From positions 1 through 64,000 of the IMG/VR virus record IMGVR_UViG_3300032235_000647: DNA of 64,000 nt; one strand, written 5' to 3'. Position numbers and translations under genes: made by a program. Of the stretch, positions 28,009 through 64,000 are shown piece by piece. This DNA comes from a virus. The stretch's first letter is position 1, and the number at the start of each line of letters is the position of its first letter. The notes beneath the pieces are model-generated. The model made no database searches and was not told where the DNA came from. It was given only the letters and a program-made list of their open reading frames with translations.

Positions 28009-28500
28009 TTAGAATTCCAAGATTGCGTAATCGTAAGAAATTGTTAATTCGATTGTGGCAGGATCAGTACCAGTTGCCCAATCCAAATCACCAAAGTTTG
28101 CTTGTGTAATGAAAGCACCTTTCAATGTCCATTGTTCGATTTTATCACCTACTGGACCTAACATATAACACTGGATATCTTTCTTATACATATCAGCATA
28201 TCCATTTCTACCAGTTAGAGATTCATGTGATAAACGAACCCACTCCATTACCGCTTGTGCTCCAGATGGAACAATTGGGTCATAAAGAGTCATTGTAATA
28301 TCTTGCCACTCACCCTTACCTTTAAGTTGTCTTTTAACATTAATGTGGTCTAGGGTAACCTTTTCAAACTGAATTGTAGGTCTTTGTGATGCTTTAATTA
28401 AATATGAAGGAATACCACCTACTTCGAAGATGAAGCGGTTCTTCATCTTCGGTTCGAAATTGGTATAGAACATTTCATTAAATTCTAATACTTCTGCCAT
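28009..28500 (-). CDS. tail tube protein (gp19-like)
   Basis: FEPKMKNRF, W.DIT.TLYDP, EQWTLKGAFI, ISYDYA; follows sheath. Confidence 0.9.
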   Translation of the reverse strand: MAEVLEFNEMFYTNFEPKMKNRFIFEVGGIPSYLIKASQRPTIQFEKVTLDHINVKRQLKGKGEWQDITMTLYDPIVPSGAQAVMEWVRLSHESLTGRNGYADMYKKDIQCYMLGPVGDKIEQWTLKGAFITQANFGDLDWATGTDPATIELTISYDYAILEF

Positions 28501-28554
28501 TTTTTATTTTCTCCTATTATACTAATAAATATAATCTTTTTTTATTTTTTTAAA

Positions 28555-30879
28555 TTATGCTGTAAATGAAGCTCCAGTTGGCAAGATGTTGAAATCTAAC
28601 ACGATAAATTCAGCAGTTCTTGTTGGTTGTAAGAAAATCTGTCCAGCCAAGATGTTTCTATCGATTACATCAGGAGTATTGTTTGATTCATCCATTACTA
28701 CACGGAATGCAAACAAACCTTGTCTTTGCTGAATACCTTCCAAGTATGGATTTACAGTATTCAAGAATCTTGAACGAGTTTGTGCAGTGTTTTGTTCGAA
28801 TACCAAGTATCTTGAAGTAGATGCAATGTATTTCTTAACTTTAATCAACAATCTTCTTACATTGATTCTATCAAGTGCAGATGCTCTGTCTTGAAGAGTC
28901 TTCTGTCCAAATGCAACGATACCTTCTCCAGGGAATTGAGCAATTGGGTTTACTTTGTTCTCATATAGAGTATCTCTTTCAGCATGTGTTAATCTATTCA
29001 ATACACTAACTGCACCAGTGATACCACCTCTATTCAAACCAGCAGGAGCAAACCACTCTGCGGCGATAGCATCGTTGGCAGCGTAGATTCCTGGCATCAA
29101 TACTGATGGTGGAACGATAGTTAGTTTGTTTGTTCTTGAATCAATTGTTTTAACCCAAGGATAGTAAGAACCCACATAGTTAGAATCAACATTTTGTGCT
29201 TCACCTGTTACTAAATCAATTGTATCATCGTAATCACTTAATTCACCAATAAAGAACGCATCTTCTCTAGCCTCTACCATATCAACAATCTTATCAAATA
29301 CATAAGAGTGTAGTCTTCTAACAACACCAGGAGCAGCTACCAAGTTGATATCAAAATCATCAGGGTTAGATACTGAATTGATTGCTTTTACATAAGCAAC
29401 TGAACCACTTGTTGTAGGGTTAGCCAAGTTGAATCCTTGTGAGTTTCCAGCTCCCCAATCAGTATCACCAACTTTTGCCAAAGCATGTTTTACAACAGGA
29501 GATATTCCATCAAATCCACCTTGGAAACCTACCGTAAATTGTCTTTTAGCAACATCAGTAGTATTTGAACCAGTTAATAAATAATTAAATGGTACATCAT
29601 CAAATGAGAAATGTATATTTGAACCAGTACTAGCATTATTTGGAATTGGAGCCAAGAAGTAATTATTATCTACTTTTACAATTGAAGTTTCTAAATCAAT
29701 ACCTGAATATCTAAATGTAGATGATGAAGTATTATCATGTGAACCAGTTGAGAAGATAACTGCAGGTGTTATTGAATTATTTCCTCGGATTGGAGAAAGA
29801 TATGCCTCATGTCCGAATGGTCCTGCCGTAATTGGAAAAGAACCTTCTTCTGAAACTTCAACTCTAACAAGTCTAGAACGATTTGCATAATCTCCATTCA
29901 TTGTCATCTTACCATTTGCATCAATAGTGATGTTTTGGTCACCAATTATTTTTAAAATATAATTAGGTGAAGACGGGTCTAAATTAACATTATTATAAGT
30001 TTCTAAAATTGATTTTCTTCTATCAGTATCAGAATATGCTCTAATCACAATTGAGAAAGTTGCATAATCAGTAGCATTTGACTCACCAGCTGCCTTTACA
30101 TTAAAAATAGAAATTTTGTATTCATTATTAGCATATGTACCATCACCTAATGTGTGGAAACGGAACAATTGATGGGTTTCACCAGAAATTTCTTGAGAAA
30201 TAATCCAAGGAGTGGATGCGAATGTGCAATCTTGACTAGAAAAACTTTGCTCACCTAAACTTACCAATGAAACAGTTGACCCAGAATCTTCATTGAAGAT
30301 AGATTCTGCTGCGTTTTCAAAGAATTGAGAAACATACACCCCTTTAGACCCTCGTGGATTACCACCAAATACATCAGATAAATCATTTCCAGCTGTGTAT
30401 AGGATTGATGCAGATACTGAAGTATTGTATGCAGAATCAGAACCACTCAATACAATATTGAATACTGATGATGATACTTGAGCATCAATTGATGCGGTGA
30501 TAGCATCACCATTTCCAGAGGTTGTCCAGTGATGAGTTGATTTTAAAACACCAACTAATTTTTCTCCATTAGAACCTGATACTTTAATACCAACTGATCC
30601 TTGTTGAGTATATCCACCGATATGCCCAACACGAACAATAGTTACAGTTCCAGCTTCTCTTAAATAATTTTGAACCGCGTACCCAGTGTAGTAAGAACCA
30701 TCTGGTGTACCGAAAATTGATTCAAATTCTGATTGGGTGTTTACTACGGTTGGTGCGAAAGCAGGTCCTTTAGAAAAAGGTCCGATTATTGCTGCTCCGA
30801 TTTCTCCAATACCTTGTGATAAGAAAGAAAGGTCATTCTCTCTAGTAAATACACCTGGTGATACAATCTTTTCTGCCAT
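28555..30879 (-). CDS. contractile tail sheath protein (gp18-like)
   Basis: VSPGVFTREND, WFAPAGLNRG, RDTLYENKVNPI, GQKTLQ, INVRRL, PTRTAEFIVLDF. Confidence 0.95.
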   Translation of the reverse strand: MAEKIVSPGVFTRENDLSFLSQGIGEIGAAIIGPFSKGPAFAPTVVNTQSEFESIFGTPDGSYYTGYAVQNYLREAGTVTIVRVGHIGGYTQQGSVGIKVSGSNGEKLVGVLKSTHHWTTSGNGDAITASIDAQVSSSVFNIVLSGSDSAYNTSVSASILYTAGNDLSDVFGGNPRGSKGVYVSQFFENAAESIFNEDSGSTVSLVSLGEQSFSSQDCTFASTPWIISQEISGETHQLFRFHTLGDGTYANNEYKISIFNVKAAGESNATDYATFSIVIRAYSDTDRRKSILETYNNVNLDPSSPNYILKIIGDQNITIDANGKMTMNGDYANRSRLVRVEVSEEGSFPITAGPFGHEAYLSPIRGNNSITPAVIFSTGSHDNTSSSTFRYSGIDLETSIVKVDNNYFLAPIPNNASTGSNIHFSFDDVPFNYLLTGSNTTDVAKRQFTVGFQGGFDGISPVVKHALAKVGDTDWGAGNSQGFNLANPTTSGSVAYVKAINSVSNPDDFDINLVAAPGVVRRLHSYVFDKIVDMVEAREDAFFIGELSDYDDTIDLVTGEAQNVDSNYVGSYYPWVKTIDSRTNKLTIVPPSVLMPGIYAANDAIAAEWFAPAGLNRGGITGAVSVLNRLTHAERDTLYENKVNPIAQFPGEGIVAFGQKTLQDRASALDRINVRRLLIKVKKYIASTSRYLVFEQNTAQTRSRFLNTVNPYLEGIQQRQGLFAFRVVMDESNNTPDVIDRNILAGQIFLQPTRTAEFIVLDFNILPTGASFTA

Positions 30880-30957
30880 TTTATATTACTCCTTTATAAT
30901 TTCAATTATGTAATGATACGAATATAAATATTACTTACTTTTTGTAAAGAATATTTT

Positions 30958-31239
30958 TTATTGAGTAACCTCATTATTTATGGGAGTAAATACACCAGTA
31001 TTTGGATCATAATTACCATCACCATATTTTTCGTTTAAATTTTTAAATAATTCTAGTTCGGTATTAACCAACTCTTTGTGTTTTTCTAATAATTCTGATT
31101 CAATTTCATCCAATTCATCATTTCTTCTTTTTCTCTCAACCGAAAGTTGTCCTAATTGAATAAAAACTAATTCCACATCAGTTTTTAATTGATTAATTGA
31201 ATTGACTTCTTCTTGTGTAAACTTGATTTGTTCCATCAT
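30958..31239 (-). CDS. small coiled-coil protein
   Basis: Heptad pattern; C-terminal KYGDGNYDPNTGVF. Confidence 0.7.
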   Translation of the reverse strand: MMEQIKFTQEEVNSINQLKTDVELVFIQLGQLSVERKRRNDELDEIESELLEKHKELVNTELELFKNLNEKYGDGNYDPNTGVFTPINNEVTQ

Positions 31240-31302
31240 TTTGATATATTTAGTTATTGTTTTTTATATATAAATATATAGTTTTTCATCAAACATTAAA
31301 AA

Positions 31303-32562
31303 TTATCTTGTAAATATTATTGTTGCCCATGCTCCTTTTAATCCCTGATCAATTGCTCTAACTCTGATATACCAATTTCCTGCAGATAATAATGTATTTA
31401 CTTCAATACTTGTAGAACTCCATTCAGAATAATCATAAGTTAGTGAACCAAAATCAGAATTGTTATCTATTTGAACATCGTATGCAGTAATACCAGTTGT
31501 TCCAACTGATGATGGTGCTGTCCATGATACGAACGGTGAAGAATATGCTAATGAAGTTGGAGCTCCAGGTGCAGCTAAGTCAGTATGAGAATTACCACCT
31601 TTATTGTGAGTGATATATCCATTAACCATGTAAGTATCATCTTCTTCAACATCAATAGAAACAATTTCAGTAGTTTTTTCTACAATTTCAATTGAAGTAA
31701 TATCAACTTCTGAATTATCACCTTTAATTAATTTATCACCAACTACCAAATTGAACATTTCTTTGAAAAGATAATCACCAGTTACCGAATCTTTCACCAA
31801 CATCGGGTGTTCGGACGTAGCAGTAACCTCTCCATTATTAACATCATAATAACGAGACGCGAATGAATAAGTTAAATTAACAATTGTTACATCTTTTGGT
31901 GTAGTAGAAAGTGATTCAGTTGACCAATCTAAGAATGTTTCATCGGACTCCATACTTAATCCACCAATAGAGAACCCTTTAAGTGAGTCTCCTTCATTCA
32001 AATCACCAGCCTCTACGATTGTACCATCAGCTAATGTAACAGGTGAATCAATAGTTAAACATAGTGCAGTAGAGTTTCCATCATAGGAATCTACCGAATA
32101 AACGGTCTTGGTTCTTGCAACATTATAGTTAACAGCATGTTGATTATATCCATCAGCAAAAGTTGCAGAAACTGTATGTAAAAGTACTGGTTGTAAAACG
32201 GTTTGAGTTGGTGCATTTGTCATATTACCAACTGCAATACTAGCACTAACACCATTGTTTGTAGAAACTGATAATCTATCGCCACCTGTAATTCCCCAAG
32301 TTACATTTCCACCTCTACTACTAATTTGTGAAAAATTAGTACCTCCTCCAGCTGTTCCTAATGTATATACTTCGGAAGTGTTTTCAACTGCGTATGTAAA
32401 CCCATTAACACTACCTATTGAATCTACTGCATATGAAGATAGAGCAGTTGAAACTGCAGAACCACGAATAGTACCAAGTGAAACATTGGAATTTTGTGTA
32501 TTTCCAGTTGCACCTGCAAGTGCATTAAGTGATAAAGTATCTCCGGATGTTAATGTTGGCAT
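31303..32562 (-). CDS. virion protein with Hint (intein-like) domain and C-terminal FN3-like domain
   Basis: C168 (CLTIDSPVTLADG), block B TSEHP, terminal YITHN320 then K; WTAP...YDVQ...WYIRVRA FN3. Confidence 0.85.
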   Translation of the reverse strand: MPTLTSGDTLSLNALAGATGNTQNSNVSLGTIRGSAVSTALSSYAVDSIGSVNGFTYAVENTSEVYTLGTAGGGTNFSQISSRGGNVTWGITGGDRLSVSTNNGVSASIAVGNMTNAPTQTVLQPVLLHTVSATFADGYNQHAVNYNVARTKTVYSVDSYDGNSTALCLTIDSPVTLADGTIVEAGDLNEGDSLKGFSIGGLSMESDETFLDWSTESLSTTPKDVTIVNLTYSFASRYYDVNNGEVTATSEHPMLVKDSVTGDYLFKEMFNLVVGDKLIKGDNSEVDITSIEIVEKTTEIVSIDVEEDDTYMVNGYITHNKGGNSHTDLAAPGAPTSLAYSSPFVSWTAPSSVGTTGITAYDVQIDNNSDFGSLTYDYSEWSSTSIEVNTLLSAGNWYIRVRAIDQGLKGAWATIIFTR

Positions 32563-32571
32563 ATCTGTTCC

Positions 32572-33570
32572 TTATGTATTATAAATATGAAGTAATTGGT
32601 CTACCCACTTTTCTTTATTTGAAAAATTATCAATCATATATGATTTAATAATATTAAACCATTTATTTTTTATTTCGTGTGGAGTTACCAATAACTTATT
32701 ATAAATATCATGAAACTCGGTTTTAGTTGAAACACGATATGGATACTCTAAATCTTTACACCAATTTTTATGTATTATTGGTAATTTACCTCTATCTACT
32801 GCTTCAAATATAGAATATCCAAATGGTTCGGATGTAAACGCAGAATGAGAGATACCCCAATCCATATTATAGAATATATCCTTAAATGATGAATCGTAAT
32901 GATATATTTTTGATTTAGATGTATCAACTTTTGCCCCATTTTTCCAAATGGAGTTAAATTCGTGTGAATTAGTAAAAATATACGATTTTAACCCATCTAA
33001 ATAGTGTGGGTTCTTTCTACCTTCACATCTTGCGGCAAATCCTAAGTTATTTGACTCTGAAAGTGGTAAATTCCATTTAAATTCGTAAAAATTACGAATA
33101 TTCGTGTTTGGAATCAATATATCGTATAATCCTACCCAAACTGAGTGAGTTGTCCATTCATTTACTTCCTTTTCCCAACTTGAATCTAAATATGGATGCC
33201 ATCCAAGTGATGCATCAGTACCAACTTGTGATTTTATGATGTGGTCTACTGAATTGTGGAGAATATTCGAGTGAATTTTGTGTTTATTCTCTTGGATTAC
33301 CCCCATTGGGGTATAATGTCCATGTAAAATGTTAATTCTTCTCGCATTTCTACACAATTCTTCTACTTTTTGTATATCGTCTCCATGCCAGTACGCTTCT
33401 ATTGGAAATTTGTAGTCTTCGTGTCCTTTTGGCCGATTTCGGTGTAAAATAAGTATAGGTTTTACGTCTAAATATGGAGCAACCAACTCCATCCATAGAT
33501 TTACCCAAGTATCAGTACCTGCATTTACCCAAGGACCTCCACCAGTAGTGTAATAAACATCGTAAACCAT
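32572..33570 (-). CDS. glycosyltransferase (GT-B / GT4-like)
   Basis: N-terminal GGG..AGTDTW, RKNP, EPFGYSIFEAVDRGKLPI. Confidence 0.8.
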   Translation of the reverse strand: MVYDVYYTTGGGPWVNAGTDTWVNLWMELVAPYLDVKPILILHRNRPKGHEDYKFPIEAYWHGDDIQKVEELCRNARRINILHGHYTPMGVIQENKHKIHSNILHNSVDHIIKSQVGTDASLGWHPYLDSSWEKEVNEWTTHSVWVGLYDILIPNTNIRNFYEFKWNLPLSESNNLGFAARCEGRKNPHYLDGLKSYIFTNSHEFNSIWKNGAKVDTSKSKIYHYDSSFKDIFYNMDWGISHSAFTSEPFGYSIFEAVDRGKLPIIHKNWCKDLEYPYRVSTKTEFHDIYNKLLVTPHEIKNKWFNIIKSYMIDNFSNKEKWVDQLLHIYNT

Positions 33571-33577
33571 TTATTTT

Positions 33578-34336
33578 TTATTTTTTAACTATAATTCTAC
33601 CCGAAAAGGTACCTGAAAAAGTTATATCAAGAGCATTTACCGAAGTTGATTCTATAATTGAAGGTAATTCTTGTCTTTTTGATGAAGTATTCCATGCTTG
33701 AACTATTGGATATTCTTCATTTAAATTATGAGTAATCGTGTATGTTGAATTACCACTAACATTTACAGCATAAGTAGTCAAATCAGTAATTTGAGATGAC
33801 CCAGAAATTAATCCTGATGGTTTATTTGCAATACTTGTCCATTCGGTCGAGCCACTAACTATATGTCCACCTTTTGCAACTACAACATATCCACTATGAT
33901 TTGCAGATAATCCAATTGTTGCAGTATTATTATTCGTAAGTGTAACCGAAGATGGTATAATCTGAGTATCATTATTTTCGTATACAGAAATTAATAGATT
34001 TTTGCTATTAAAATTATGTGTTACTGAAATTGTAGATTGATTATCAAACGATGCGGTTAATGTAGCAACTTGTGAAACATCAGCAGGTGGTAAATTTGTT
34101 AATTGTGAACCATTACCAATAAAATATGATGCAGTAACATTGCCATTTACATTTATGGAACCAGTAGTTTGTGAGTTGGTGGTAACAATTTGTTGAATAG
34201 ATGATACACCATTATCTCTTTCAAAAAATATTCGGCCATCAAAAGTATTAATTGCTAACTCACCTAATTCTAAATTAGAATTAGATGGGACTTTACCTTC
34301 AACCGCTGTTCTTTTTAACTTTACTACTTGTGCCAT
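33578..34336 (-). CDS. tail fibre-associated protein
   Basis: MAQVVKLKRT..GELAINT.DG N-terminus; two THNL/THNF beta modules. Confidence 0.75.
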   Translation of the reverse strand: MAQVVKLKRTAVEGKVPSNSNLELGELAINTFDGRIFFERDNGVSSIQQIVTTNSQTTGSINVNGNVTASYFIGNGSQLTNLPPADVSQVATLTASFDNQSTISVTHNFNSKNLLISVYENNDTQIIPSSVTLTNNNTATIGLSANHSGYVVVAKGGHIVSGSTEWTSIANKPSGLISGSSQITDLTTYAVNVSGNSTYTITHNLNEEYPIVQAWNTSSKRQELPSIIESTSVNALDITFSGTFSGRIIVKK

Positions 34337-34424
34337 ATTTATGTGTTACCGATTTCATTATATAATTACTTCGGTTAAAATATCCTTATATAAGGAAGTT
34401 TTTTTTACCTTTATTTATCTATAT

Positions 34425-48564: not shown

Positions 48565-48599
48565 AATTTTTTTTCCTATGTTTTTTTATTTTTTTTTTG

Positions 48600-48965
48600 T
48601 TATCTACTTACTATTTTTCCTTTTACAAAGAAATCCGATGCTGTTATAAGATCTGGTCTAAATGTTATACTTTGATTAAATGTTATTACAATATTAGAAC
48701 CATTATCTATAACACTATATTGGTCAGCTGTTCTTTTCAATCCTTGTAAAAATACATCGACATAATCTGATAAGCTATCTACTTTAATATCTTCGAATAC
48801 AAATTTTTTGTCCAAGAAAGTTAAAGTAAAAAAATCACCATTTAAAGAAATTGAATCAGGAGTATATTGATATATCCATGAATCATTTATTACTTCCAAT
48901 ACAAGATTTTTTACTCTCAATTTATCATTAAAAGGAACTATTACATTTGGTTTAGGTTTAATCAT
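48600..48965 (-). CDS. small structural protein
   Basis: beta-rich; VDVFLQG motif. Confidence 0.65.
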   Translation of the reverse strand: MIKPKPNVIVPFNDKLRVKNLVLEVINDSWIYQYTPDSISLNGDFFTLTFLDKKFVFEDIKVDSLSDYVDVFLQGLKRTADQYSVIDNGSNIVITFNQSITFRPDLITASDFFVKGKIVSR

Positions 48966-49288
48966 ATCGAATCTATATCTCCTTCTAATTTTATATCATC
49001 AGTATTTTCTAATTCGTATTGAAAATTTGCTTTAATGAAAGATACATGAAAATCATTATTAACCTGCTCAAATATATAATCTCTTTCTAAAATATATTGA
49101 CCATTAATAAATATATCAAAACGAGAGTGTTCCTTTCTAAATGGTCTTAAATTTATGTTTAAATCTTTCATTTTTACATTTGGTAATTTCCAAATCCAAT
49201 ACGAAGGATGTGAAAGGTTATGTGGAATCAGAGTATATTCATCTGGTTCGTGAACTTGTTTTAATATTTTATTTAATTCATTTATCAT
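48962..49288 (-). CDS. small structural protein
   Basis: FDIFINGQY motif; overlaps both neighbours. Confidence 0.65.
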   Translation of the reverse strand: MINELNKILKQVHEPDEYTLIPHNLSHPSYWIWKLPNVKMKDLNINLRPFRKEHSRFDIFINGQYILERDYIFEQVNNDFHVSFIKANFQYELENTDDIKLEGDIDSI

Positions 49289-50985: not shown

Positions 50986-52134
50986 TTATCCTATATAAAT
51001 TGCAAGTGGCACTTTTCCTATAATCTTTTGTTGTTGGTCAACCATTTCTGCCTCATTGGACATTCTAGTTTTTCTACTTACTTCTTCCAAGTTTTCTCTT
51101 AATTGAGTAATCAAGTTGTCCTTTTCAGTTTGAGCTTCTGCTCTTAAAGCAGCACCATCAAGGGAAACTTCTGAACCAGGAATTGGCACTGTATTATATT
51201 TCTCTCTAATAGCACCCAACATTTCTTTTGCAAGTGCAAGAGTATATTTTCTAATCCATTGTTTACCCACATCATTAATTTGTGAGTAAGTTGCAAAATT
51301 ATACTCAATATTAGAATAATCAGACATTACATTTGGTCTAACAACAGTTGAATTTTCTCTAAATTCAGTATCTACATAGTACTCAAACCATAATTGATAA
51401 TCGGAAGTTGGTATTGGGAATATTTTTAATTTATTATTTACAATATTGAATGTATGAGCCGATTTACGGAACTGGTCATTAAATTCAATTGCTTGAATTC
51501 TCAACATATCCTCATAAAGAGGCATTAATATGAATTGTGCAGCTGGTGAAAATGAGCCAAATCCAAATTCATCAATTAAGTTTAATGTACCTTGACCTGA
51601 TACTGAATAAGGGTCAAAGAATCGATTGATTGCAGGAGTTGCCTCATAAAATACTCTAGTTACTGATATTCTTTCACCACCTTCGGCTACATCAGCAAAT
51701 TCTTGTAAATCATAATCTTGTACACCCTCAGTCATATTAATAGAACCAGATTTTATACTAGTTCTACCACCTACTCCTGCTTGACTTCCGTATGCTTGCG
51801 AAATTTCAATTACATTATTTAATTCTGAGCCATTTACTTGTTTTCCAGTATAATTTACACCAGTTGGTCTACCTTGTAATGCACCAAGATTATTTCGAAT
51901 ATTGAATTGATTTACTTGGGCAGAATATTCAGAAACAGCCTCTTCAAATACTGCAAAAAAGTTTTCACCTTCTAATTCTATATCAATTATAGGATACCCA
52001 AGGCGTTTAGCACACCAAGATGCAACTTTTGGTGCTTCTGTTCTAAATTCAGAATCAGAATCATAAATACCAAAAGGGGTTGATGAACCCGTTACAAATA
52101 CAGCTGAACCTGTCCAAATTCGTGCTTGAGACAT
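50986..52134 (-). CDS. neck protein (gp13-like)
   Basis: RLGYPIIDIEL, WIRKYTLALAKEMLGAIREKY..PG..VSLDG. Confidence 0.85.
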   Translation of the reverse strand: MSQARIWTGSAVFVTGSSTPFGIYDSDSEFRTEAPKVASWCAKRLGYPIIDIELEGENFFAVFEEAVSEYSAQVNQFNIRNNLGALQGRPTGVNYTGKQVNGSELNNVIEISQAYGSQAGVGGRTSIKSGSINMTEGVQDYDLQEFADVAEGGERISVTRVFYEATPAINRFFDPYSVSGQGTLNLIDEFGFGSFSPAAQFILMPLYEDMLRIQAIEFNDQFRKSAHTFNIVNNKLKIFPIPTSDYQLWFEYYVDTEFRENSTVVRPNVMSDYSNIEYNFATYSQINDVGKQWIRKYTLALAKEMLGAIREKYNTVPIPGSEVSLDGAALRAEAQTEKDNLITQLRENLEEVSRKTRMSNEAEMVDQQQKIIGKVPLAIYIG

Positions 52135-52182
52135 ATTAGTTTTCCTATTTTATACAATTATACACCTATAAATATAAACAAC

Positions 52183-52592: not shown

Positions 52593-52647
52593 TTAGTATA
52601 TTCCTATTAAATTTACTAATAAATATATACCAAAAAGTTTTTACGAA

Positions 52648-53702: not shown

Positions 53703-53730
53703 AATTTTAGAGGTTAGGGGTTTAATTTTT

Positions 53731-53778
53731 ATTACTTAACAAATATATAAAAAAGACCTGAATAATCCAAGTCTTTTC
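53731..53778 (-). promoter_or_regulatory. early (host-type) promoter
   Basis: aagaCTTGgatt-...-TATATTTG-ttaaGTAAT. Confidence 0.7.
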
Positions 53779-53998: not shown

Positions 53999-54018
53999 AT
54001 TGTTTAGGGGTTTAAAGG

Positions 54019-54702: not shown

Positions 54703-54715
54703 ATCGTATAGGGGG

Positions 54716-54889
54716 TTATTTTTTTCTATTTCTTAATTGCAGTATAAGTTGGTATCCATCAAACTCGGCCTCTTTAAGAGAGAATCCATTTTGTAAGTTC
54801 ATCAATCTAGTTGATTCGTAGATTTTTCGTTCTTCAGGAGTCAATGACGCGAAGAATTCAAAGTTGGGGGAGTTGTTGTTAGTACTCAT
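54716..54889 (-). CDS. early small protein (57 aa)
   Basis: Manual: MSTNNNSPNFEFFASLTPEERKIY...; AACCCCT leader. Confidence 0.6.
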   Translation of the reverse strand: MSTNNNSPNFEFFASLTPEERKIYESTRLMNLQNGFSLKEAEFDGYQLILQLRNRKK

Positions 54890-54890: not shown

Positions 54891-55010
54891 TTATGAGGGG
54901 TTGATTAGTTCGTATTCAGTATAGGGTTCTAGTATCCCTGATTCATTTAATCGGTTCTTGGTGATTTCTCTAACCCAGCCGAGTCCGTTGATGTAGAAGG
55001 TGTCTTTCAT
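54891..55010 (-). CDS. early small protein (39 aa)
   Basis: Manual: MKDTFYINGLGWVREIT...; first gene after promoter. Confidence 0.55.
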   Translation of the reverse strand: MKDTFYINGLGWVREITKNRLNESGILEPYTEYELINPS

Positions 55011-55555: not shown

Positions 55556-55567
55556 ATCTTTTAGGGG

Positions 55568-55624
55568 TTATCTCTTATTACTTTATAAATGTAGTAAAAA
55601 AACCTGAATAATCCTAGTCTTTTA
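55568..55624 (-). promoter_or_regulatory. early (host-type) promoter
   Basis: aagaCTAGgatt-...-TACATTTA-taaaGTAATAAGAGATAA. Confidence 0.65.
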
Positions 55625-55914: not shown

Positions 55915-55932
55915 ATTAGTAAGGGTTTAAGG

Positions 55933-56016: not shown

Positions 56017-56044
56017 AAAAAAAAGGGATGATTTCTCATCCCTT
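56017..56044 (-). terminator. intrinsic terminator
   Basis: aagggatga / tcatccctt stem plus U-run. Confidence 0.85.
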
Positions 56045-56064
56045 GATTAGTATTTTTTATTTTA

Positions 56065-56913: not shown

Positions 56914-56925
56914 AATATTTTATTT

Positions 56926-57384
56926 TTAATCGTCTCCGTTAAATTCTAATTGAGTTACCACACTTATATCATCAAAACATAATCTAACAGTATATTCCGT
57001 ATCAGAATCTGCGTAAGTATGATTTATTTCAAGTTGATTTACACCATCTACTTCACCAGTTTCAGTTTCACCATCACCCCATGTTATTGTGTAATTGGTT
57101 GGTGCAGATGTGTTAATCCAAAATCTACATTCAGTTCCATCGGTTGTGTTGTTTACGAATTCAATACATCCAGAAGGTAACCCTTGTTGGATAACTGTAG
57201 CAACTGCACTACCAGCAGAACTTGGTACAACTTGTTGTTGAACAAGTAATTGTTGTGTTAAATATACCTCGTGTATCAAATTTTGATTGTAAATTTCATA
57301 CTCAATTAATTGTCTACTAAGAGGTAATTGGGCGATATGTGGTAGGCTAGAAAACTGATGCCACGAAAGTCCATTTATTATCAT
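56926..57384 (-). CDS. PKD-like domain protein
   Basis: YTITWGDG...HTYAD...YTVRL. Confidence 0.75.
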   Translation of the reverse strand: MIINGLSWHQFSSLPHIAQLPLSRQLIEYEIYNQNLIHEVYLTQQLLVQQQVVPSSAGSAVATVIQQGLPSGCIEFVNNTTDGTECRFWINTSAPTNYTITWGDGETETGEVDGVNQLEINHTYADSDTEYTVRLCFDDISVVTQLEFNGDD

Positions 57385-57436
57385 ATATTGTGTGTTTTAA
57401 AGATATAAGTATAAATATCATCCATACTAATTTAAC

Positions 57437-57465
57437 AAAAAAAAGGGAGAACTTTCGCTCTCCCT
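57437..57465 (-). terminator. intrinsic terminator
   Basis: agggaga / tctccct stem plus U8. Confidence 0.75.
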
Positions 57466-57485
57466 CTAATTTATTATTTCACTCT

Positions 57486-58019
57486 TTATATATTTGAAAT
57501 TATTTGATTTATTTTTTCAGAATACAGCGGATGGTTTTTATATTGAATAAGCAAATTATGATAAAATTCTAATTTATCTTCAATCCGTTGTCCATACGGT
57601 TGAGAAGTATCCCATAATTCTAAATTTTCTATTCTATTATCGGTTTTTATACCATTTCTGTGATGTATGTTCTGATTTTTAGTAAGTGTAACTCCATAAT
57701 ACTCTTCATACACAACTCTATGTTCTAGTTTACCTCTATTTTTACCATGTTTTATCACATTATAACCTCTACTACTGATACTACCATTACCACCTTTCCA
57801 TCCAAAGTTATTTGAACCACTCATGCGTTCTTTGGCAACCTCTTTATTATAACATCCACATGATTTTACAATACCTCGTGTTAAATCTGATGTTAGATGT
57901 GTTTTAATCGTACCACACTCACAAACACACTCCCATTTCTTTTGTTTTCTACCATTGTTGGTAATCCAAACTGGTTTGATAACCTTAAATCTATTAAATT
58001 GTTTGTTAGTTAAATCCAT
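57486..58019 (-). CDS. HNH homing endonuclease
   Basis: WECVCECG, KSCGC, EHRVV, IHHRNGIKTDNRIENLELW. Confidence 0.9.
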   Translation of the reverse strand: MDLTNKQFNRFKVIKPVWITNNGRKQKKWECVCECGTIKTHLTSDLTRGIVKSCGCYNKEVAKERMSGSNNFGWKGGNGSISSRGYNVIKHGKNRGKLEHRVVYEEYYGVTLTKNQNIHHRNGIKTDNRIENLELWDTSQPYGQRIEDKLEFYHNLLIQYKNHPLYSEKINQIISNI

Positions 58020-58022
58020 ATA

Positions 58023-58054
58023 ACTAATATACGATTTTTTTAGCAGTTTTCAAA
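58023..58054 (-). promoter_or_regulatory. host-type promoter for the HNH gene
   Basis: TTTG-N19-TATATTAG just before the ATG. Confidence 0.5.
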
Positions 58055-58059
58055 ATATT

Positions 58060-58701
58060 TCACCATTTTTTTCTATTTTCTTCCCAAGTAATCATTCGTA
58101 AGTTTTCCATCTTGCCTATTTCATCTGCAGGTATTCCTTTTTCCCAGCCATCATTTATAGAAACAACATGGTCTATTTGATATGCTCCTATTACACCATT
58201 CCTACCCCGTTTATCAAAGTTTGGTAATGTTGTTAAATCATTTCTATAAGTATATTTCCAAACTTCTCTCTTGTAAAATTGTTTTTTGGGATATTTTTCT
58301 ACATATTCATCCCACGATGAGAAACCTGCTTTAGTTGCTCTCATTTGTTTAATATGTTCTTCAGTTATATTATTGATAAATGTTTTACCATATTTAATTG
58401 TTGCACAAGATATGCATAATTTCTTACCTCGTATTCCATTATCTCTACTCTTTTCAGATATATGGTAAATTTTAGTATCACATGATGGGCAAAATCTGTG
58501 AAATGGTTTGTTTATTTCATTCAATTTATTTCGTAAATGAGGTTTCCATCCCAATTCCATTTTTTTGTGAACAATCTTGCTATTTTGTTCTGATTGACAC
58601 GATTTACATTTAGAATTTCTCTTTTTTGCATTATACCAACTTCTTTTATTGGTATATTCAATTTCACTATTACAAATAGGACAATTTCTTATATTTGTCA
58701 T
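58060..58701 (-). CDS. Zn-finger HNH-like endonuclease
   Basis: Four CxxC pairs; YQIDHVVSI...NLRMITWEEN. Confidence 0.75.
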   Translation of the reverse strand: MTNIRNCPICNSEIEYTNKRSWYNAKKRNSKCKSCQSEQNSKIVHKKMELGWKPHLRNKLNEINKPFHRFCPSCDTKIYHISEKSRDNGIRGKKLCISCATIKYGKTFINNITEEHIKQMRATKAGFSSWDEYVEKYPKKQFYKREVWKYTYRNDLTTLPNFDKRGRNGVIGAYQIDHVVSINDGWEKGIPADEIGKMENLRMITWEENRKKW

Positions 58702-58735
58702 ACTACCTCTTTTCTATGTATTTACATATAAATAT

Positions 58736-58767
58736 AAAAAAAAAGAGGGAAACCGAAATTTCCCTCT
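58736..58767 (-). terminator. terminator after major capsid gene
   Basis: agagggaaa / tttccctct stem plus U9. Confidence 0.85.
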
Positions 58768-58798
58768 AATTTTACTAAGAATATTTACTCTAAATAGA

Positions 58799-60415
58799 TT
58801 ATACTAAAGCTAAATCTTTAACATAAATCTTACCATAGAATTCAGGACGAACCATCTTCTTAGCGTAACGAGTCATTACCCCGCGTCTTGGAGTAAAGTT
58901 AGTTGGATCGTACACTAATGGAGTCATAATCAATGGAACGTAAGGAGCGTATACAGCACCAGTCTCAAGGAAGTTAGAACCTTTGAAACCTAACAAAATC
59001 TCGTTAGATGTCATGTAAGGGTTCTTGTAAACAGTATATCTGTTTGCCATTGAACCAACTTGAGAAACACCAGCAGCAAACTGCATAGCATCTTTATCAG
59101 CATTTACCATGAATCCTGGGATTGATTCCAAGATAGTAGCTACATCTGGAGATACTACAACGAAGTTAGCACCACCACGAAGAGTTAATTGGTGAATCTT
59201 GTTAGATACTTTGTTCAACTTAGCACCAAGAGTTTGGAACCAAGTGTTCTTAGTGTAAGCAGCAGCGTTAGTACCAGCTACCCAAGTAGAACCATTCCAC
59301 TCTTCACCCAATGTTGCTGACCAGTACTCAGTAGTCAAAGCGTTAGCCTTCAACATATCAAGGATTTCAAGGTCAATCTCCAAAGAGATGTACTCTGACA
59401 ACATTGAAGTTAATTCAGCTTCTGCATCGATTGAGTGGTAAGCGTTCAAATCTTGAGCAAGTTCAGGAGTCCAAACTGCCTTCAACTTACGAGTCTTGGC
59501 TACGATAGCCTCAGAACGAAGTTCCAAATCAACTTCAGGAATACCTAAATCAGTTGCTGGTTCAGTTGGGTTAGCATCTTCGAAATCACCTCTTGTGTTA
59601 GCAGTTGGCTGCTTAGCATAAGTAATAGCGATTGAAGAAGTTGCGTTAGTTAAAGAAGTAACTTTTGCATAGAATACTGCAGAAGTTCCAGATAAATCAG
59701 AGTGAGCTGGGTAGAAAGTATCAGCTGCAGAGAATGCAGATGAAGAGATGTAAAATGCCTTAACACCTTCTAAATCAGCAGAAGTAAAGTTACCAGCCTG
59801 AGGGATAGTAATTTTAGCCAAAGTAGAGTTAGCTACTGAAGATGACAAAGAAGCATCAAATCCAACTTCTAACCAAGATGCAGTTGCAACAGTATAAGAA
59901 CCAGAAGCAATAGTTGCAGCTGATTCGTTGATAGTGTATGCAAATCTACCATCACCATAAAGACCGTTTACAGCAGCCTTAGTTCTACCGAAGTCACCAT
60001 TGAATGCTGATGTACCATTACCACCGAAAAGTGATTTTCCAGAGAATGCAGGATTAGAGGCTACAGCAGTACCATACTTGAAATCAAGATAGAAAATAAG
60101 ACCAGATGGAAGGTTCATTGGTTGAACTGAAACGAATTCTTTCGCTGCAATTTCACCAAAGATTCTTCTTACCAATGGAAGGGCTACGCCAGACCATTCT
60201 TCAGAACCTGCAGAGGTTCCGGTAGCAGTAGCTTCGTCAAGCAATTGTTTTGCTTGGTTTTCCAAAAGAACTGCGATTTGAGATTGCTCTCTAGATTTTA
60301 AACCTTCAAGAAGTCCAGTTTTTGCCCACTTAGCTTGTAACTGACGAGTTTCAGCCAACATTACTTGTTGTGGGTTCTTTCCTTCCATTAGTTTAGATAA
60401 ATTAAAATTTGCCAT
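58799..60415 (-). CDS. major capsid protein (T4 gp23-like)
   Basis: LPLVRR, VSVQPM..PSGLIF, AKTRKLKA.WTPELAQDL.A.H.IDAEAEL, YAPYVPL, TRYA. Confidence 0.97.
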   Translation of the reverse strand: MANFNLSKLMEGKNPQQVMLAETRQLQAKWAKTGLLEGLKSREQSQIAVLLENQAKQLLDEATATGTSAGSEEWSGVALPLVRRIFGEIAAKEFVSVQPMNLPSGLIFYLDFKYGTAVASNPAFSGKSLFGGNGTSAFNGDFGRTKAAVNGLYGDGRFAYTINESAATIASGSYTVATASWLEVGFDASLSSSVANSTLAKITIPQAGNFTSADLEGVKAFYISSSAFSAADTFYPAHSDLSGTSAVFYAKVTSLTNATSSIAITYAKQPTANTRGDFEDANPTEPATDLGIPEVDLELRSEAIVAKTRKLKAVWTPELAQDLNAYHSIDAEAELTSMLSEYISLEIDLEILDMLKANALTTEYWSATLGEEWNGSTWVAGTNAAAYTKNTWFQTLGAKLNKVSNKIHQLTLRGGANFVVVSPDVATILESIPGFMVNADKDAMQFAAGVSQVGSMANRYTVYKNPYMTSNEILLGFKGSNFLETGAVYAPYVPLIMTPLVYDPTNFTPRRGVMTRYAKKMVRPEFYGKIYVKDLALV

Positions 60416-60439
60416 TTTTATTGTCTCCTAATGTTTTGT

Positions 60440-61528
60440 TTATTTAATATTTGCTAATTGTTTGAATCTTTCAGCTAAAGCATTGCTTTCAGAAATAATC
60501 TCCTTCTTAGGAGCAGTTGAAGCAACTGGCTTAGATGCAAATGATTCGGTTAATTTGGTTTGTTTTACTTTTTTAGATGTACCACCCATTTTAAGTGATT
60601 CAGCTAAAGTAGAGAATACTAGTTTTACTTCTCTAACATTACCAGTTCTGTCTAATGTTTCAACAACTTTGTGCTTTTGCTCATTTGTCAAATCATAAGA
60701 ACGGAATAATTTGTTAGTGTAAAGTAATTTAGCGTTCAATAAGTTTACTTCATTAATGGTTTTCTTTAATGATTTGATTACTTTGTAAGCTTCTTCAAGT
60801 TCGGCTTCTTTTTCAGCCATTTCAGCTGCCATTTCTTCACCGTTTTCTTCTTCTTCAGAAACTTCTTCGTCATCACCATATCCCATTTCTCTCAAGATTT
60901 CGTCTAAATCGATTCCATCTGCTGCAGGCATTTCTTCTTCAGATTCTTCTTCATGCATTTCTTCGTCATCCTCTTCGTTCATTTCGTCTTCGGATTCTTC
61001 TTCGTGCATTTCTTCTTCCTCTTCTTCATGCATTTCTTCTTCACCTTCTTCTTCAAGTTCAGATTCCAATTCTCTGATGATTTCTGCTAAATCGAATTCA
61101 TCTTCGTCTTCTTCCTCTTCTTCAGGTAAATAAGATTGGGTTTCACCCGGTACTTCATCCTCGTCACCTTCAGATACAACATCATAGTCTTCTTCTTCTT
61201 TGCCTACTTCTGCTGTTTCTACTTCGGTATCAGGATTTCCTTTTGCTAATTCTGATGAGCTGTTAGCATCATCTGCTGGTTGCTTATTATCGCCAGTTCC
61301 AATATCAGATGCATCTTGATCTGGAGCTTCGCTTCCATCTGAATACTCTTCGTTTACTTCCTCTTCGTCATCCATATCTTCCATTTCTGCCTGGATTCTT
61401 CTGGATAAAGCGGCTTGTAATCTTGGAGCAAATGCTTCTTCTAGTGCGATTTTGGCGTTTGCAATTGCAGTTTCTCTAACGGCTTTGGCATCAGCAATAG
61501 CTTCTTTCAATAATTTTGAATTTGCCAT
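60440..61528 (-). CDS. prohead core scaffold protein (gp22-like)
   Basis: Start reassigned to MANSKLLKEAIADAKA (AGGAAGG SD); very acidic; directly upstream of MCP. Confidence 0.8.
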   Translation of the reverse strand: MANSKLLKEAIADAKAVRETAIANAKIALEEAFAPRLQAALSRRIQAEMEDMDDEEEVNEEYSDGSEAPDQDASDIGTGDNKQPADDANSSSELAKGNPDTEVETAEVGKEEEDYDVVSEGDEDEVPGETQSYLPEEEEEDEDEFDLAEIIRELESELEEEGEEEMHEEEEEEMHEEESEDEMNEEDDEEMHEEESEEEMPAADGIDLDEILREMGYGDDEEVSEEEENGEEMAAEMAEKEAELEEAYKVIKSLKKTINEVNLLNAKLLYTNKLFRSYDLTNEQKHKVVETLDRTGNVREVKLVFSTLAESLKMGGTSKKVKQTKLTESFASKPVASTAPKKEIISESNALAERFKQLANIK

Positions 61529-61750
61529 TTTTTGACCTTCCTTTTGTTTTTTGTCCGTGAAATTATTAGGAGAATTCCAATGTGGGGTTGATTTAAGGTC
61601 GGTTGTTCGGTCACCACTTAATAAAGGGTATTCATTAACCAACTTTTTAATAAAAATTCACATTAATGGTGAATTAATTATAAATAAATATATAATATGA
61701 AAATTAAACCTATAATTTTCTATATAAAATATATATTTTTTGTAAAAAAA

Positions 61751-61999
61751 TTACTTTTTATTCTTTTTACCACTATTATACTCACCACTTGCCATTCGTT
61801 CCAACATAACTTTTCTTTGGTTTTCGCGAATAGCCTTTAATTTAGTAGTTCGTCTAACAGTTTTTGGTTTTGTAAATTCTTTTCTATCTCTCAATTCAAG
61901 AAGATGTCCTGAATCGTTTACTTTCTTTTTAAAAACCTTGAGTGCCTTTGCAATATCTCCGTTTTTAACTATAACCTTAATTAGTGCTGTTTTTGCCAT
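61751..61999 (-). CDS. rpsU: ribosomal protein bS21
   Basis: VIVKNGDIAKALKVFKKKV..SG.L.ELR.RKEFTKPK..RR fits the S21 pattern. Confidence 0.9.
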   Translation of the reverse strand: MAKTALIKVIVKNGDIAKALKVFKKKVNDSGHLLELRDRKEFTKPKTVRRTTKLKAIRENQRKVMLERMASGEYNSGKKNKK

Positions 62000-62042
62000 T
62001 TATATGAAAATTAATTTAATATAAGTATTCTTTTTTTATTTT

Positions 62043-62384
62043 TTAAGAACCTTTTCCTGTTCTAGATTTTTTACCACCAGTATGTGTAGATACATTTATT
62101 GGTTTTTTTCCTTGGCCTGGTGATTCGGAACCTCCTCTACCTGTCTTGTTTTGTGCTGCTCTTTTTCTACGAGTTGCAGATTCTTTTTCTTTTTTACTCA
62201 TAGTTTTTGCTTTTGCAGCAGGGACACACTTTGCATATCCACTCTTTTCTCCGCTCGTTCCACAAGGAGGATGTTTTCCACCAACTTTTTTACCAATATT
62301 AACCCACTTGGATTTGAACCAATTACGAAGGTCTTCATTGGTGGTTTGTTGAGATATTTCTTGTAGAATTTGATTGAGTTTCAT
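62043..62384 (-). CDS. basic head-associated hypothetical protein
   Basis: EDLRNWFKSKWVNIG..PCG...AKCVP motif; N-terminal ILQE. Confidence 0.75.
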   Translation of the reverse strand: MKLNQILQEISQQTTNEDLRNWFKSKWVNIGKKVGGKHPPCGTSGEKSGYAKCVPAAKAKTMSKKEKESATRRKRAAQNKTGRGGSESPGQGKKPINVSTHTGGKKSRTGKGS

Positions 62385-62539
62385 TAGTCCTTACATTTTT
62401 TCCAACCACCACCCTTACCTTTGTAGTTTTTTGCAGCCCATCCATTTGCATAAGCAGAAGGATATACATCAAACTTCTTTTTTGCTGCTGCTTTGGATGC
62501 AGACCATTTTTCAGGGTCAGTTGGGCAATTCTTTTCCAT
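62384..62539 (-). CDS. small basic domain (F.VYPSAYANGW..K.YK..GG.W), standalone or frameshift-fused to the upstream gene
   Basis: Manual: MEKNCPTDPEKWSASKAAAKKKFDVYPSAYANGWAAKNYKGKGGGWKKCKD; frame is open back to the A10 run at 62579-62588. Confidence 0.7.
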   Translation of the reverse strand: MEKNCPTDPEKWSASKAAAKKKFDVYPSAYANGWAAKNYKGKGGGWKKCKD

Positions 62540-62568
62540 CAATTTTTGGACTTCTTCACCTAATCTAA

Positions 62569-63216
62569 TTAATTCAGATTTTTTTTTTCGTCTAGTTTAG
62601 ATTCTAACTTAGTTCTTATTTTATTAGTAACTCTATTCAATTCTTTTTTATCAATACCTAGTGCATCCAAAACTCTACCCATTACTTGTAATTTTTGTGG
62701 ATATGTTAGTTTCTTTGCATCAAGTATATCTAACGCCTTTTGTAATTTGAGTCTTACATCACCGGGAATTGGTGCCTTATTAACATCTTCACCTGCTTCG
62801 GATATGGATTCTCTGATTCCTAATCTTTTTTTCATTTCGTCTTCAGTAATTTCTCCCATCTTGTAATATCTATTAAGAATATGACCCATATCTTCATACA
62901 ATCCGTGTAATCTCTGGTCTAATGAATTAGCTTCAGTTGCACACTTATCAAACTCTTTACCTAACTTATCTAATTCATTCAAGTTTCGTTTGATAGTCAC
63001 TTTATCAAACCAGTCATCACTTTCACCTAACAATAAAGTTTTTGCAGCTTCGGTAATTCCACCTAAAACTTCTGCAACTTCGGTAATATCGGATTTTCTA
63101 TCCATCATTTCTTGATATTTGTTATATGTAGAAATGATTTCAAGGAAGTGTTTCTTCACTTGAGGTGATAATGTTCTAGGTTCTTCGTTTTCTTTTAGTA
63201 ATTTAGTTAATTTCAT
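62569..63216 (-). CDS. head-region helical protein
   Basis: DWFDKVTIKRN...LYEDMGHILNRYY; AGGAG SD. Confidence 0.75.
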   Translation of the reverse strand: MKLTKLLKENEEPRTLSPQVKKHFLEIISTYNKYQEMMDRKSDITEVAEVLGGITEAAKTLLLGESDDWFDKVTIKRNLNELDKLGKEFDKCATEANSLDQRLHGLYEDMGHILNRYYKMGEITEDEMKKRLGIRESISEAGEDVNKAPIPGDVRLKLQKALDILDAKKLTYPQKLQVMGRVLDALGIDKKELNRVTNKIRTKLESKLDEKKNLN

Positions 63217-63235
63217 TAGTATATTCTCCTATATG

Positions 63236-63487
63236 TTAATAAATACCAGGTCGGTCACCTTTTTTCATGGTATCTGCCCAAGTTTGAAACATTTTTTTAA
63301 TATCTGCTGGTAATTGTTTATCTCTTATCGTTAAAACTCCATCTTTACTGATATGGGCAATTATTTTATAGTCACCATTTTTTTCTTCGGCTCTATTCCA
63401 AATAGTTAAACCATTACCCATCCATCCCGAACCGATATCGTATTTTTTTGTTTCTTTAAGAATTGAAGTTAAACGAGTTGATTTCAT
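63236..63487 (-). CDS. head-region hypothetical protein
   Basis: GxGxMGNGLTIWNR...YKIIAHIS; AGGAG SD. Confidence 0.7.
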   Translation of the reverse strand: MKSTRLTSILKETKKYDIGSGWMGNGLTIWNRAEEKNGDYKIIAHISKDGVLTIRDKQLPADIKKMFQTWADTMKKGDRPGIY

Positions 63488-63499
63488 TAGTATAATCTC

Positions 63500-64000
63500 C
63501 TATCTAAATTTATTAATCAAGGATCTAAAACGAGATCCAAGTGAACCTTTTTTTGATTTATCAGCATCCGATTCTCTGTCACGATTTTGAGTAGGTGGCG
63601 GAGGAGGAGGCGGTGGCGGTGGAATTGAACCTGCTGGTCTTGGTTTCACACCTGGTGCACTTCCACTCTTTGGAATCGGTGGAGGTGGAGGTGGAGGAAG
63701 TTTACGAGCAGGTGCTGCAGCCTTTGGTGCTACCGTAGGTGGAACTTTAACCGAAGGTTTAGTATCCCACTTACTATTAGGTGCAACTGCTTTTGAAGAA
63801 TCCCATCCACTTGGTGCATTTTTTATCCAATCTGGCTCTTCCCATGCTCCTCCTTTTGAAGTTGTAGGTGGAGGAGTTTTCAAAGATGGTTTTCCACTAG
63901 GTGGTGGAGGTGGAGGTGGCGGTGGAACCGCACCTTTTGGTCTTACACCAGGAGGTGTTCCAACAGATTTTCCACTAGGTGGAGCAATAACTGGTGGTTT
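63500..64000 (-). CDS. proline-rich protein, C-terminal part
   Basis: Frame is open to the window edge; three runs of 7-9 prolines. Confidence 0.7.
   Translation of the reverse strand, partial: KPPVIAPPSGKSVGTPPGVRPKGAVPPPPPPPPPSGKPSLKTPPPTTSKGGAWEEPDWIKNAPSGWDSSKAVAPNSKWDTKPSVKVPPTVAPKAAAPARKLPPPPPPPIPKSGSAPGVKPRPAGSIPPPPPPPPPPTQNRDRESDADKSKKGSLGSRFRSLINKFR

Follow-up and report, generated by a model that had tools for sequence, protein, structure and literature searches.

Arginine-type bS21 and Shine-Dalgarno-like sites before the virion genes of a T4-like phage: a candidate link

We analysed a stretch of 64,000 nucleotides (the window) that forms the first 64 kb of a 130,194-bp virus contig, IMG/VR record IMGVR_UViG_3300032235_000647, whose completeness is put at 65% by CheckV, and looked in particular at its gene for the ribosomal protein bS21 (rpsU) and at the Shine-Dalgarno (SD)-like sites that stand before its virion genes. 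All long open reading frames (ORFs) of the window are on the minus strand, and annotation with Pfam and PHROGs indicates a T4-like myophage, with baseplate and fibre genes also in the T4-like gene set. The genes on which the argument turns are the following.

28009-28500, minus strand: tail tube gene, gp19 type (PF06841; phrog_4542).
28555-30879, minus strand: tail sheath gene (PF04984, PF17482; phrog_23).
50986-52134, minus strand: neck adaptor gene (Pfam/PHROGs).
58799-60415, minus strand: major capsid protein gene, gp23 type (PF07068, E 2.9e-76).
60440-61528, minus strand: gene for a scaffold-like protein, starting at ATG 61528 or at TTG 61642.
61751-61999, minus strand: bS21 gene (rpsU), 82 amino acids (PF01165; phrog_21469).

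The head genes run in the order portal, protease, ..., bS21, scaffold, capsid protein, which matches the head block conserved in bS21 phages; the original prediction of a genuine bS21 gene within the head module is thus borne out by gene order and by the Pfam match. The scaffold-like protein had no Pfam or PHROGs family match, and its reciprocal best match is the gene upstream of the capsid gene in Flavobacterium phage immuto (54% identity). The prohead protease, portal, large terminase, primase and SbcC-like nuclease genes lie beyond the window, together with a 20-kb sugar-synthesis island. Words from the head region are present in metagenomes of lakes and other freshwater bodies, and in metatranscriptomes from several studies.

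We called 132 genes of the contig without using SD signals, as the longest non-overlapping ORFs from their first ATG. Pairing energy with the anti-SD core (dG) was -6 or lower at 15.2% of these starts, compared with 6.2% of 2,890 other ATGs. The coding strand of the contig has 100 copies of the word AGGAG; at spacers of 4-13 nt before the 132 starts it was observed 11 times when 1.01 were expected (Poisson p 1.2e-8), and the spacers of the 11 copies that come within 25 nt of a start all fall in the range 6-13. AGGAG thus has the properties of an SD, being complementary to the anti-SD, close to the start and present above chance. The sites led 15 of the 65 virion-module genes and only 1 of the 67 others (Fisher p 1e-4). 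The SD-like sites of the window are given below.

60425-60430, minus strand: TAGGAG, 9 nt before the capsid ATG; motif and spacing are retained in relatives.
61536-61543, minus strand: AAGGAAGG, 7 nt before the scaffold ATG at 61528; dG -8.7.
30889-30894, minus strand: AAGGAG, 9 nt before the sheath ATG; dG -8.3.
28511-28516, minus strand: TAGGAG, 10 nt before the tube ATG; dG -7.3.
63226-63231, minus strand: TAGGAG, 9 nt before gene 62569-63216.
63497-63502, minus strand: TAGGAG, 9 nt before gene 63236-63487.
48979-48984, minus strand: AAGGAG, 13 nt before gene 48600-48965.
26883-26887, minus strand: GGGAG, 6 nt before gene 26628-26876.
11292-11297, minus strand: AAGGAG, 12 nt before an Endonuclease_NS gene, the sole SD-led gene outside the virion modules.
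52143-52147, minus strand: weaker TAGGA, spacer 8, neck adaptor gene.
52602-52606, 50989-50993, 48574-48578 and 32569-32573, minus strand: weaker TAGGA-like sites.

The main sites have dG values of -6.8 to -8.9. The strongest precede the capsid, scaffold, sheath and tube genes, the genes starting at 63216 and 63487 and a tail fibre gene (107482), as well as the genes at 74639, 72322 and 68523 and one nuclease gene (11279); weaker TAGGA sites precede the portal and neck genes. At the called starts of the contig no SD-like site was seen before the terminase, sugar-island, primase and bS21 genes, the bS21 leader having a dG of +2.3, and in two islands, at 52.6-56 kb and 12.6-17.1 kb, most small genes are without a site, two of them having a weak AGGA or AAGGA (55404, 55236). 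The motifs that the original prediction had placed before the capsid, scaffold, sheath, tube and neck genes and those at 63216 and 63487 were all found where it put them, and its distinction between SD-bearing late genes and small early-island genes that mostly lack such sites agrees with the distribution by gene class.

By capsid protein, two cultured phages are the closest and equally distant: Microcystis phage Mel-JY01 (PP395634.1, 190 kb; 54.4%) and Flavobacterium phage immuto (vB_FspM_immuto, MW353175.1; 53.5%). Immuto resembles the phage studied here in its head-gene order, in the TATTTATA boxes before its late genes and in its adenine-rich leaders. In contrast, its complete genome is bS21-less (no PF01165 match at E<=1), and an SD stands before only 1% of its genes: with the same gene caller, 3 of 235 genes were SD-led in immuto compared with 15 of 136 here, and a second caller gave 3 of 214 compared with 15 of 124 (Fisher p 4e-5). 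When the N-termini of 17 reciprocal-best orthologues were aligned, the mean dG was +0.44 in immuto and -4.22 in this phage (Wilcoxon p 6e-4).

Words inside genes were counted as well, and tested against synonymous-codon shuffles. Internal AGGAG was depleted in this phage, with an observed/expected ratio (O/E) of 0.62 (z -4.9; 0.66 per kb), the lowest among 10 permutations of its letters; GGAGG (O/E 0.50, z -6.6) and GGAG (0.78) were depleted too, and the reverse complement CTCCT was not (1.08). In immuto, internal AGGAG is in excess (O/E 1.39, z +10), its 3.9 copies per kb being sixfold the density in this phage (L110-L117). Such strand-specific avoidance fits mRNAs read by ribosomes that see the SD, and offers indirect evidence that the AGGAG sites may raise initiation by pairing with 16S rRNA.

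We then considered the bS21 protein. Its match to PF01165 scored 47.5 bits (cut-off 27, E 1.4e-12, residues 8-60), in agreement with a genome-wide search, and it matched 22 distinct PDB bS21 sequences at E<=0.01. PDB scores such as 30.1 bits for 9i5v, compared with 25 for several phyla, do not discriminate the donor phylum. The hinge reads KPK, where the bS21 of ribosome structures have KP(S/T), and from KPK/KPS onward the HMMER alignments with 7jil_z (Flavobacterium johnsoniae bS21) and 9i5v_9 are free of gaps. The alignment with 9i5v_9 is printed through the site of interest and sets its KAIY over the phage KAIR, that is, Tyr over Arg58. The alignment with 7jil_z is printed only as far as phage I57 (residue 53 of the chain), one short of the site; here Arg58 was equated with Tyr54, and Glu59 with Ile55, by ungapped extension of the printed alignment and the numbering of PMC7797042. 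The replacement of Tyr by Arg, put forward in the original prediction, therefore holds in a proper alignment, in the case of 7jil_z by a one-residue extension.

61826-61828, minus strand: codon CGC of Arg58, at the position of F. johnsoniae Tyr54; the next residue, Glu59, stands at that of Ile55.

In the F. johnsoniae ribosome as described in PMC7797042, Tyr54 stacks on A1534 at the point where the 16S rRNA tail turns into the platform pocket, and Ile55 adds van der Waals contacts. The phage protein has Arg58 in place of the tyrosine that is the signature of an anti-SD-masking bS21, and Glu59 (E, R, A or N in its homologues, V once) in place of the hydrophobic contact residue. The C-terminal domain of Bacteroidetes bS21 is also given as much less basic than that of other phyla (Jha et al., PMC7797042). 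The phage protein does not share this host trait, since its C-terminal domain carries a net charge of +9 with a pI of 11.1 over 36 residues. We collected 111 bS21 homologues, 54-100% identical and all metagenomic, of which 110 were long enough to score: at the Tyr54 position 104 have Arg, 3 Lys and one each Leu, His and Val, and none has Tyr, Phe or Trp. Arg is found there in 13 of 13 related viral contigs. Judged from these sequences, a large clade shares Arg at the Tyr54 position as a conserved feature; a protein atlas gave only the label 'viral bS21 clusters'. A tblastn search of 50,697 phage records with this bS21, a Tyr-type bS21 and the Mel-JY01 bS21 returned no cultured Bacteroidota phage with bS21, the short queries giving it low power.

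The association of bS21 with SD-led genes was followed in 89 related head-region loci, in which bS21 was scored as absent when the 3-5 kb upstream of the capsid gene contained none. The capsid gene had a dG of -5 or lower in 27 of 28 loci with a nearby bS21 gene and in 4 of 23 without one within that distance; among the 38 loci too short to be judged for bS21, the figure was 10 of 22 scorable ones. SD-led genes numbered 104 of 346 in the bS21 loci compared with 13 of 267 in the bS21-absent loci, and internal AGGAG 0.64 compared with 1.69 per kb. This family-wide association is largely one phylogenetic split.

The probable host is a member of the Bacteroidota. The GC content of the phage (32%) is near that of a Flavobacterium host (PMC6847099). 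In its SD-less leaders, adenine makes up 61% of positions -14 to -12 compared with a background of 45% (binomial p 6.5e-7), and the same peak is seen in immuto (63 vs 47) and in three relatives with an Arg-type bS21 (53-59 vs 42-44). F. johnsoniae has an adenine peak at -14 to -11, where A-12 and A-13 stimulate translation (PMC6847099). No such peak was found in Mel-JY01 (46 vs 44) or in 14 contigs of a metagenome-assembled genome (MAG) labelled Pelagibacterales (38-43 vs about 44). Three to four gene blocks are headed by a site of the form TTTGGA-N18-19-TATnTTTG. These sites resemble the Bacteroidota -33/-7 promoter, which has the consensus TTTG/TAnnTTTG, and they are candidate promoters for the host polymerase (early promoters).

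14833-14864, minus strand: promoter-like site TTTGGA-N18-TATCTTTG, at the head of a small-gene block.
17478-17509 and about 53740-53770, and beyond the window G000:C1:112933-112964: similar, near-identical TT(T)GGA-N18-19-TATnTTTG sites.

Because the site at 17478-17509 falls inside a called ORF, gene 17177-17590 probably starts further down. Overall, the TTTG-N-TAnnTTTG pattern was not enriched, with 6 matches on the coding strand and 12 on the other; only the three to four extended copies that head gene blocks merit attention.

The bS21 gene, its substitutions, the enrichment of the motif in a single gene class and its absence from a bS21-less relative are all direct observations, and the reading they support best is that the phage bS21 takes the bS21 site of the host ribosome without holding the 16S tail, so that the anti-SD can pair with the AGGAG sites of the virion genes. 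The host phylum, the entry of phage bS21 into host ribosomes, the release of the anti-SD and the effect on translation are what we infer, and we advance this reading tentatively, at somewhat less than even chances. The steps would be as follows. Host ribosomes of the Bacteroidia type would keep the anti-SD tail of their 16S rRNA buried in a pocket formed by bS21, bS18 and bS6, and a phage promoter in the head module would drive the phage bS21. This protein would retain the ribosome-binding core, with Arg-Glu replacing Tyr54-Ile55 at two positions of pocket contact and with a strongly basic tail, as in the bS21 of SD-using bacteria. Once it sat on the 30S subunit the 3' tail would be released, leaving the anti-SD free to pair, and AGGAG placed 6-13 nt before the abundant virion genes would give them preferred initiation over host and SD-less mRNAs. 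In F. johnsoniae bS6/bS18 pocket mutants, bS21 is still bound, the density of the tail is lost and a mismatch-weakened SD initiates (Arpin et al. 2026, PMC13000457); since weakening of the pocket frees the anti-SD with bS21 in place, the proposed mechanism is physically reasonable. On wild-type ribosomes a single mismatch in a 13-bp SD abolishes initiation (PMC13000457), and given this intolerance a site of 5-6 nt would need an opened pocket. The broader formulation, in which phage bS21 is a ribosome-unmasking factor that would turn SD-blind Bacteroidia ribosomes into SD-reading ones and give virion mRNAs a private channel from which SD-less host mRNAs are excluded, is more tentative still.

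Several observations weigh against this reading. A first group concerns the host, the weak point of the argument, although Bacteroidota remains likely. Immuto, a true Flavobacterium phage, has only one, unrelated TTTG...TAnnTTTG match, which weakens that host marker. When bacterial genomes were scanned with a sugar epimerase of the phage, the sole match was a 23-kb contig (G001:C6) in the Pelagibacterales-labelled MAG, collinear with the phage sugar island at 64-75% DNA identity. Since it is collinear over nearly its whole length, the contig is probably a phage piece mis-binned by composition. Pelagibacterales was considered as a host call from this contig and set aside as unusable, the contig being collinear with the phage itself; the MAG had no PF01165 match, which is uninformative in an incomplete MAG. 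A cultured cyanobacterial phage, Mel-JY01, pairs a non-Tyr bS21 with SD-led late genes. The adenine peak and the promoter-like sites make the Bacteroidota host of the original prediction likely, and Mel-JY01 and the MAG binning speak against it.

A second group concerns timing and the role of the tyrosine. Avoidance of internal AGGAG is not stronger in late genes (O/E 0.60 in non-virion and 0.62 in virion genes); this equality across gene classes does not fit a strictly late unmasking and does not bear out a clean switch between early and late genes. The bS21 gene is apparently expressed from the same class of promoter as its supposed targets and so cannot precede them. A capsid-protein tree of 76 rows has at least 6 changes in bS21 and at least 8 in the SD, but supported branches give only 3 independent pairs, with which a sign test cannot reach significance. 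One contig scored as bS21-absent near the capsid gene (G004, 252 kb, rated complete) has an Arg-type bS21 105 kb away, and one locus (L041) has bS21 without an SD on the capsid gene. Finally, loci whose bS21 keeps the tyrosine (L057, L065, L066, L067 and L069) also have SD-like capsid leaders, with dG values of -5.8 to -8.9, and in two larger Tyr-type contigs 9% and 31% of the genes are SD-led. The co-occurrence is thus of bS21 with SD, not of Tyr loss with SD. For the proposed bS21 switch this means that it stays plausible and in part supported, given the precedent of the pocket mutants, the contrast with immuto and the avoidance signal, but that loss of the tyrosine is not needed for bS21 and SD to occur together.

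The alternative that survives best, which we consider unlikely though serious, is ordinary matching to a host that reads SD natively, either outside the Bacteroidia or in a lineage without masking, and that carries SD as an option mainly on highly expressed genes; strong sites would then simply serve abundant proteins, and bS21 would be a general means of ribosome takeover or supply, as proposed for other aquatic phages. Mel-JY01, whose recorded host is a cyanobacterium, speaks for this alternative. It shares the capsid family, has its bS21 gene between the protease and capsid genes with a non-Tyr residue at the Tyr54 offset, and carries GGAG before its capsid and scaffold genes; 15% of its genes reach a dG of -6 or lower, a share equal to that found here, its internal avoidance is stronger (O/E 0.33), and comparison of 13 orthologue pairs gives it stronger SDs than this phage. 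Avoidance in all gene classes also fits ribosomes that read SD constantly, and the sugar-island contig was binned in a Pelagibacterales-labelled MAG. However, that contig is probably the mis-binned phage piece mentioned above, and the adenine peak is shared with F. johnsoniae and immuto, not with Mel-JY01 or the MAG. The SD-less leaders differ as well: guanine at -11 to -8 amounts to 8% here compared with 23% in Mel-JY01, which means that most genes of this phage are without any trace of SD whereas Mel-JY01 uses SD in a graded manner across many genes. The Bacteroidota-type promoter-like sites and a GC content near that of Flavobacterium likewise speak against a natively SD-reading host.

We regard as rather improbable a second alternative, in which the host is a Bacteroidia member whose natural pool of 30S subunits lacking bS21 is recruited by the SD sites, while the phage bS21 has another job, such as keeping SD-less phage mRNAs translated or displacing host bS21 to some different end. 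Translation of the SD-led rpsU is indeed faster on F. johnsoniae ribosomes without bS21, and the anti-SD becomes free once bS21 is lost (PMC9976891, PMC13000457); the SD-led genes of the Tyr-keeping phages, and the shared promoter class that leaves bS21 no lead time over its supposed targets, would be accommodated. On the other hand, an AGGAG of 5-6 nt competes poorly unless the pocket is weakened, to go by the mismatch data of PMC13000457, and neither the site-less leaders of immuto at 17 orthologues nor the Arg of 104 of 110 homologues would be explained.

The last alternative involves the promoter-like boxes. A TATTTAT[AT] box lies within 80 nt before 29 starts of the contig, and there are 28 copies of ATATTTATA on the coding strand (22 intergenic) compared with 3 on the opposite strand.

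63238-63245, minus strand: TATTTAT[AT] box, one of the 29.
58734, 52625, 52174, 32587, 30930, 28531, 26906 and 11311, minus strand: positions at which the other TATTTAT[AT] boxes of the window begin.

An SD-like word follows 17 of the 29 boxes. Its distance to the ATG is tight (mean 9.3) and its distance from the box is loose (0-39); we therefore assign the word to the start codon, not to the promoter. The capsid and scaffold genes are represented in RNA contigs of four metatranscriptome runs; those of three runs (two studies) end at 61662-61664, one of them with adapter letters past the end. These ends follow an ATTTATA box by 15-17 nt and come before both possible starts of the scaffold gene, a weak hint that they mark a transcript start. 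That (T/A)AGGAG is a 5'-end signal of late transcripts (initiator, stability or processing) tied to the TATTTATA promoter, and not a ribosome site, is highly improbable: the word does follow 17 boxes and the RNA ends just past the box hint weakly at short leaders, but 12 boxes have no word, immuto has the box without the word, all 11 AGGAG copies keep 6-13 nt to the ATG, the word can base-pair with the anti-SD core, and its strand-specific avoidance inside genes fits a ribosome signal at the RNA level.

Upstream of the bS21 gene itself there is only a degenerate TACTTATATTA, with no exact TATTTAT[AT] within 80 nt, so the late-type motif once proposed for it was not recovered in exact form; among 13 relatives, the exact box motif precedes bS21 in 5. 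The RNA contigs of the same four runs do not cover the bS21 gene, and such contig gaps say nothing about its expression. In five Arg-type relatives (L012-L016, at about 5990-6000 of each locus), AAAGGAGA abuts the bS21 ATG with a spacer of about 1 nt, and an exact ATATTTATA or similar box also precedes the gene. Too near the ATG for a normal SD, this AAAGGAGA might be an autoregulatory feature by analogy with the host rpsU.

In the islands at 52.6-56 kb and 16.4-17.1 kb, a C-rich leader, (TAAGAGAT)AACCCCTAAA, is common to at least 9 small genes, its end lying about 8-14 nt upstream of the ATG. AACCC[CT]TAA is found 5 times on the coding strand, always in intergenic positions, and once on the other strand. 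The leader could have been copied with a gene cassette or could be a different initiation or regulatory signal.

55561-55569, 54894-54902, 54709-54717, 54004-54012, 53714-53722, 17109-17117 and 16736-16744, minus strand: copies of the C-rich leader.

Other features of the contig were noted in passing. An HNH homing-type endonuclease gene (57486-58019) is the second gene downstream of the capsid gene, behind 58060-58701. A 419-amino-acid protein (31303-32562) has a weak, below-cut-off match to PT-HINT (intein-like). The match of a 428-amino-acid ORF (11312-12598) to family-A DNA polymerase is confined to the polymerase's C-terminal part and stays under the Pfam cut-off (phrog_17, E 2.4e-16); the ORF may be a split or fragmentary polymerase gene. 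The 20-kb sugar island, outside the window at about 80000-100000 of G000:C1, encodes nucleotide-sugar epimerases, an RfbC-like epimerase and a radical-SAM protein, among others.

Published work already covers phage bS21, its position among the head genes and its late expression (PMC9723584), and likewise the masking of the anti-SD in the host and its release. Chen et al. (2022, ISME Commun 2:31, PMC9723584) described freshwater-lake T4-like myophages, assigned to Bacteroidetes, with bS21 in the terminase/portal/protease/capsid block and reported as expressed late. At position 54 their proteins have Tyr in 54 of 61 cases and another aromatic residue in the remaining 7, and they concluded that phage bS21 works like that of the host. 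Since only aromatic residues are reported there, the Arg-type clade is a different variant; SD sites in phage genes are not analysed in the passages of that paper covered here. In F. johnsoniae, as in the mechanism proposed here, bS21 occupancy or pocket residues decide whether the SD is read (PMC7797042, PMC9976891, PMC13000457, PMC13000453), but that host circuit acts on one gene, rpsU, through a 13-bp SD, whereas the phage variant would open many sites of 5-6 nt. The bS21 paralogues of Francisella tularensis (PMC9578407) offer another parallel, in that a swap of bS21 variants alters which mRNAs are translated; they differ in being cellular and not phage genes, and in not involving anti-SD masking. 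McNutt et al. (PMC9976891) speculate on an exchange with phage bS21 and not on SD-led phage genes. A full-text literature search found no paper linking phage bS21 to SD-led phage genes; neither that search nor the phage passages of PMC9976891 yielded the Arg-type clade, its coupling to SD-led virion genes or the avoidance signal, and PMC13000453 and PMC13000457 do not mention phage.

McNutt et al. (PMC9976891) call the role of bS21, the ribosomal protein most often carried by phages, an open question. The SD-led virion genes give it a candidate and testable job, though not a proof of one. Here a bS21 without the pocket residues and SD sites on the genes of abundant particle proteins come together in a genome otherwise like that of a Bacteroidia phage, which makes for a falsifiable hypothesis, and bS21-free ribosomes, SD reporters and cryo-EM are all available for F. 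johnsoniae. If the unmasking is true, the trait would be widespread, with more than 100 Arg-type variants in lakes, and may extend to phage bS21 that keep the tyrosine. It would overturn the published inference that phage bS21 acts like the host protein, and would represent a new viral means of separating the phage's own translation from that of its host.

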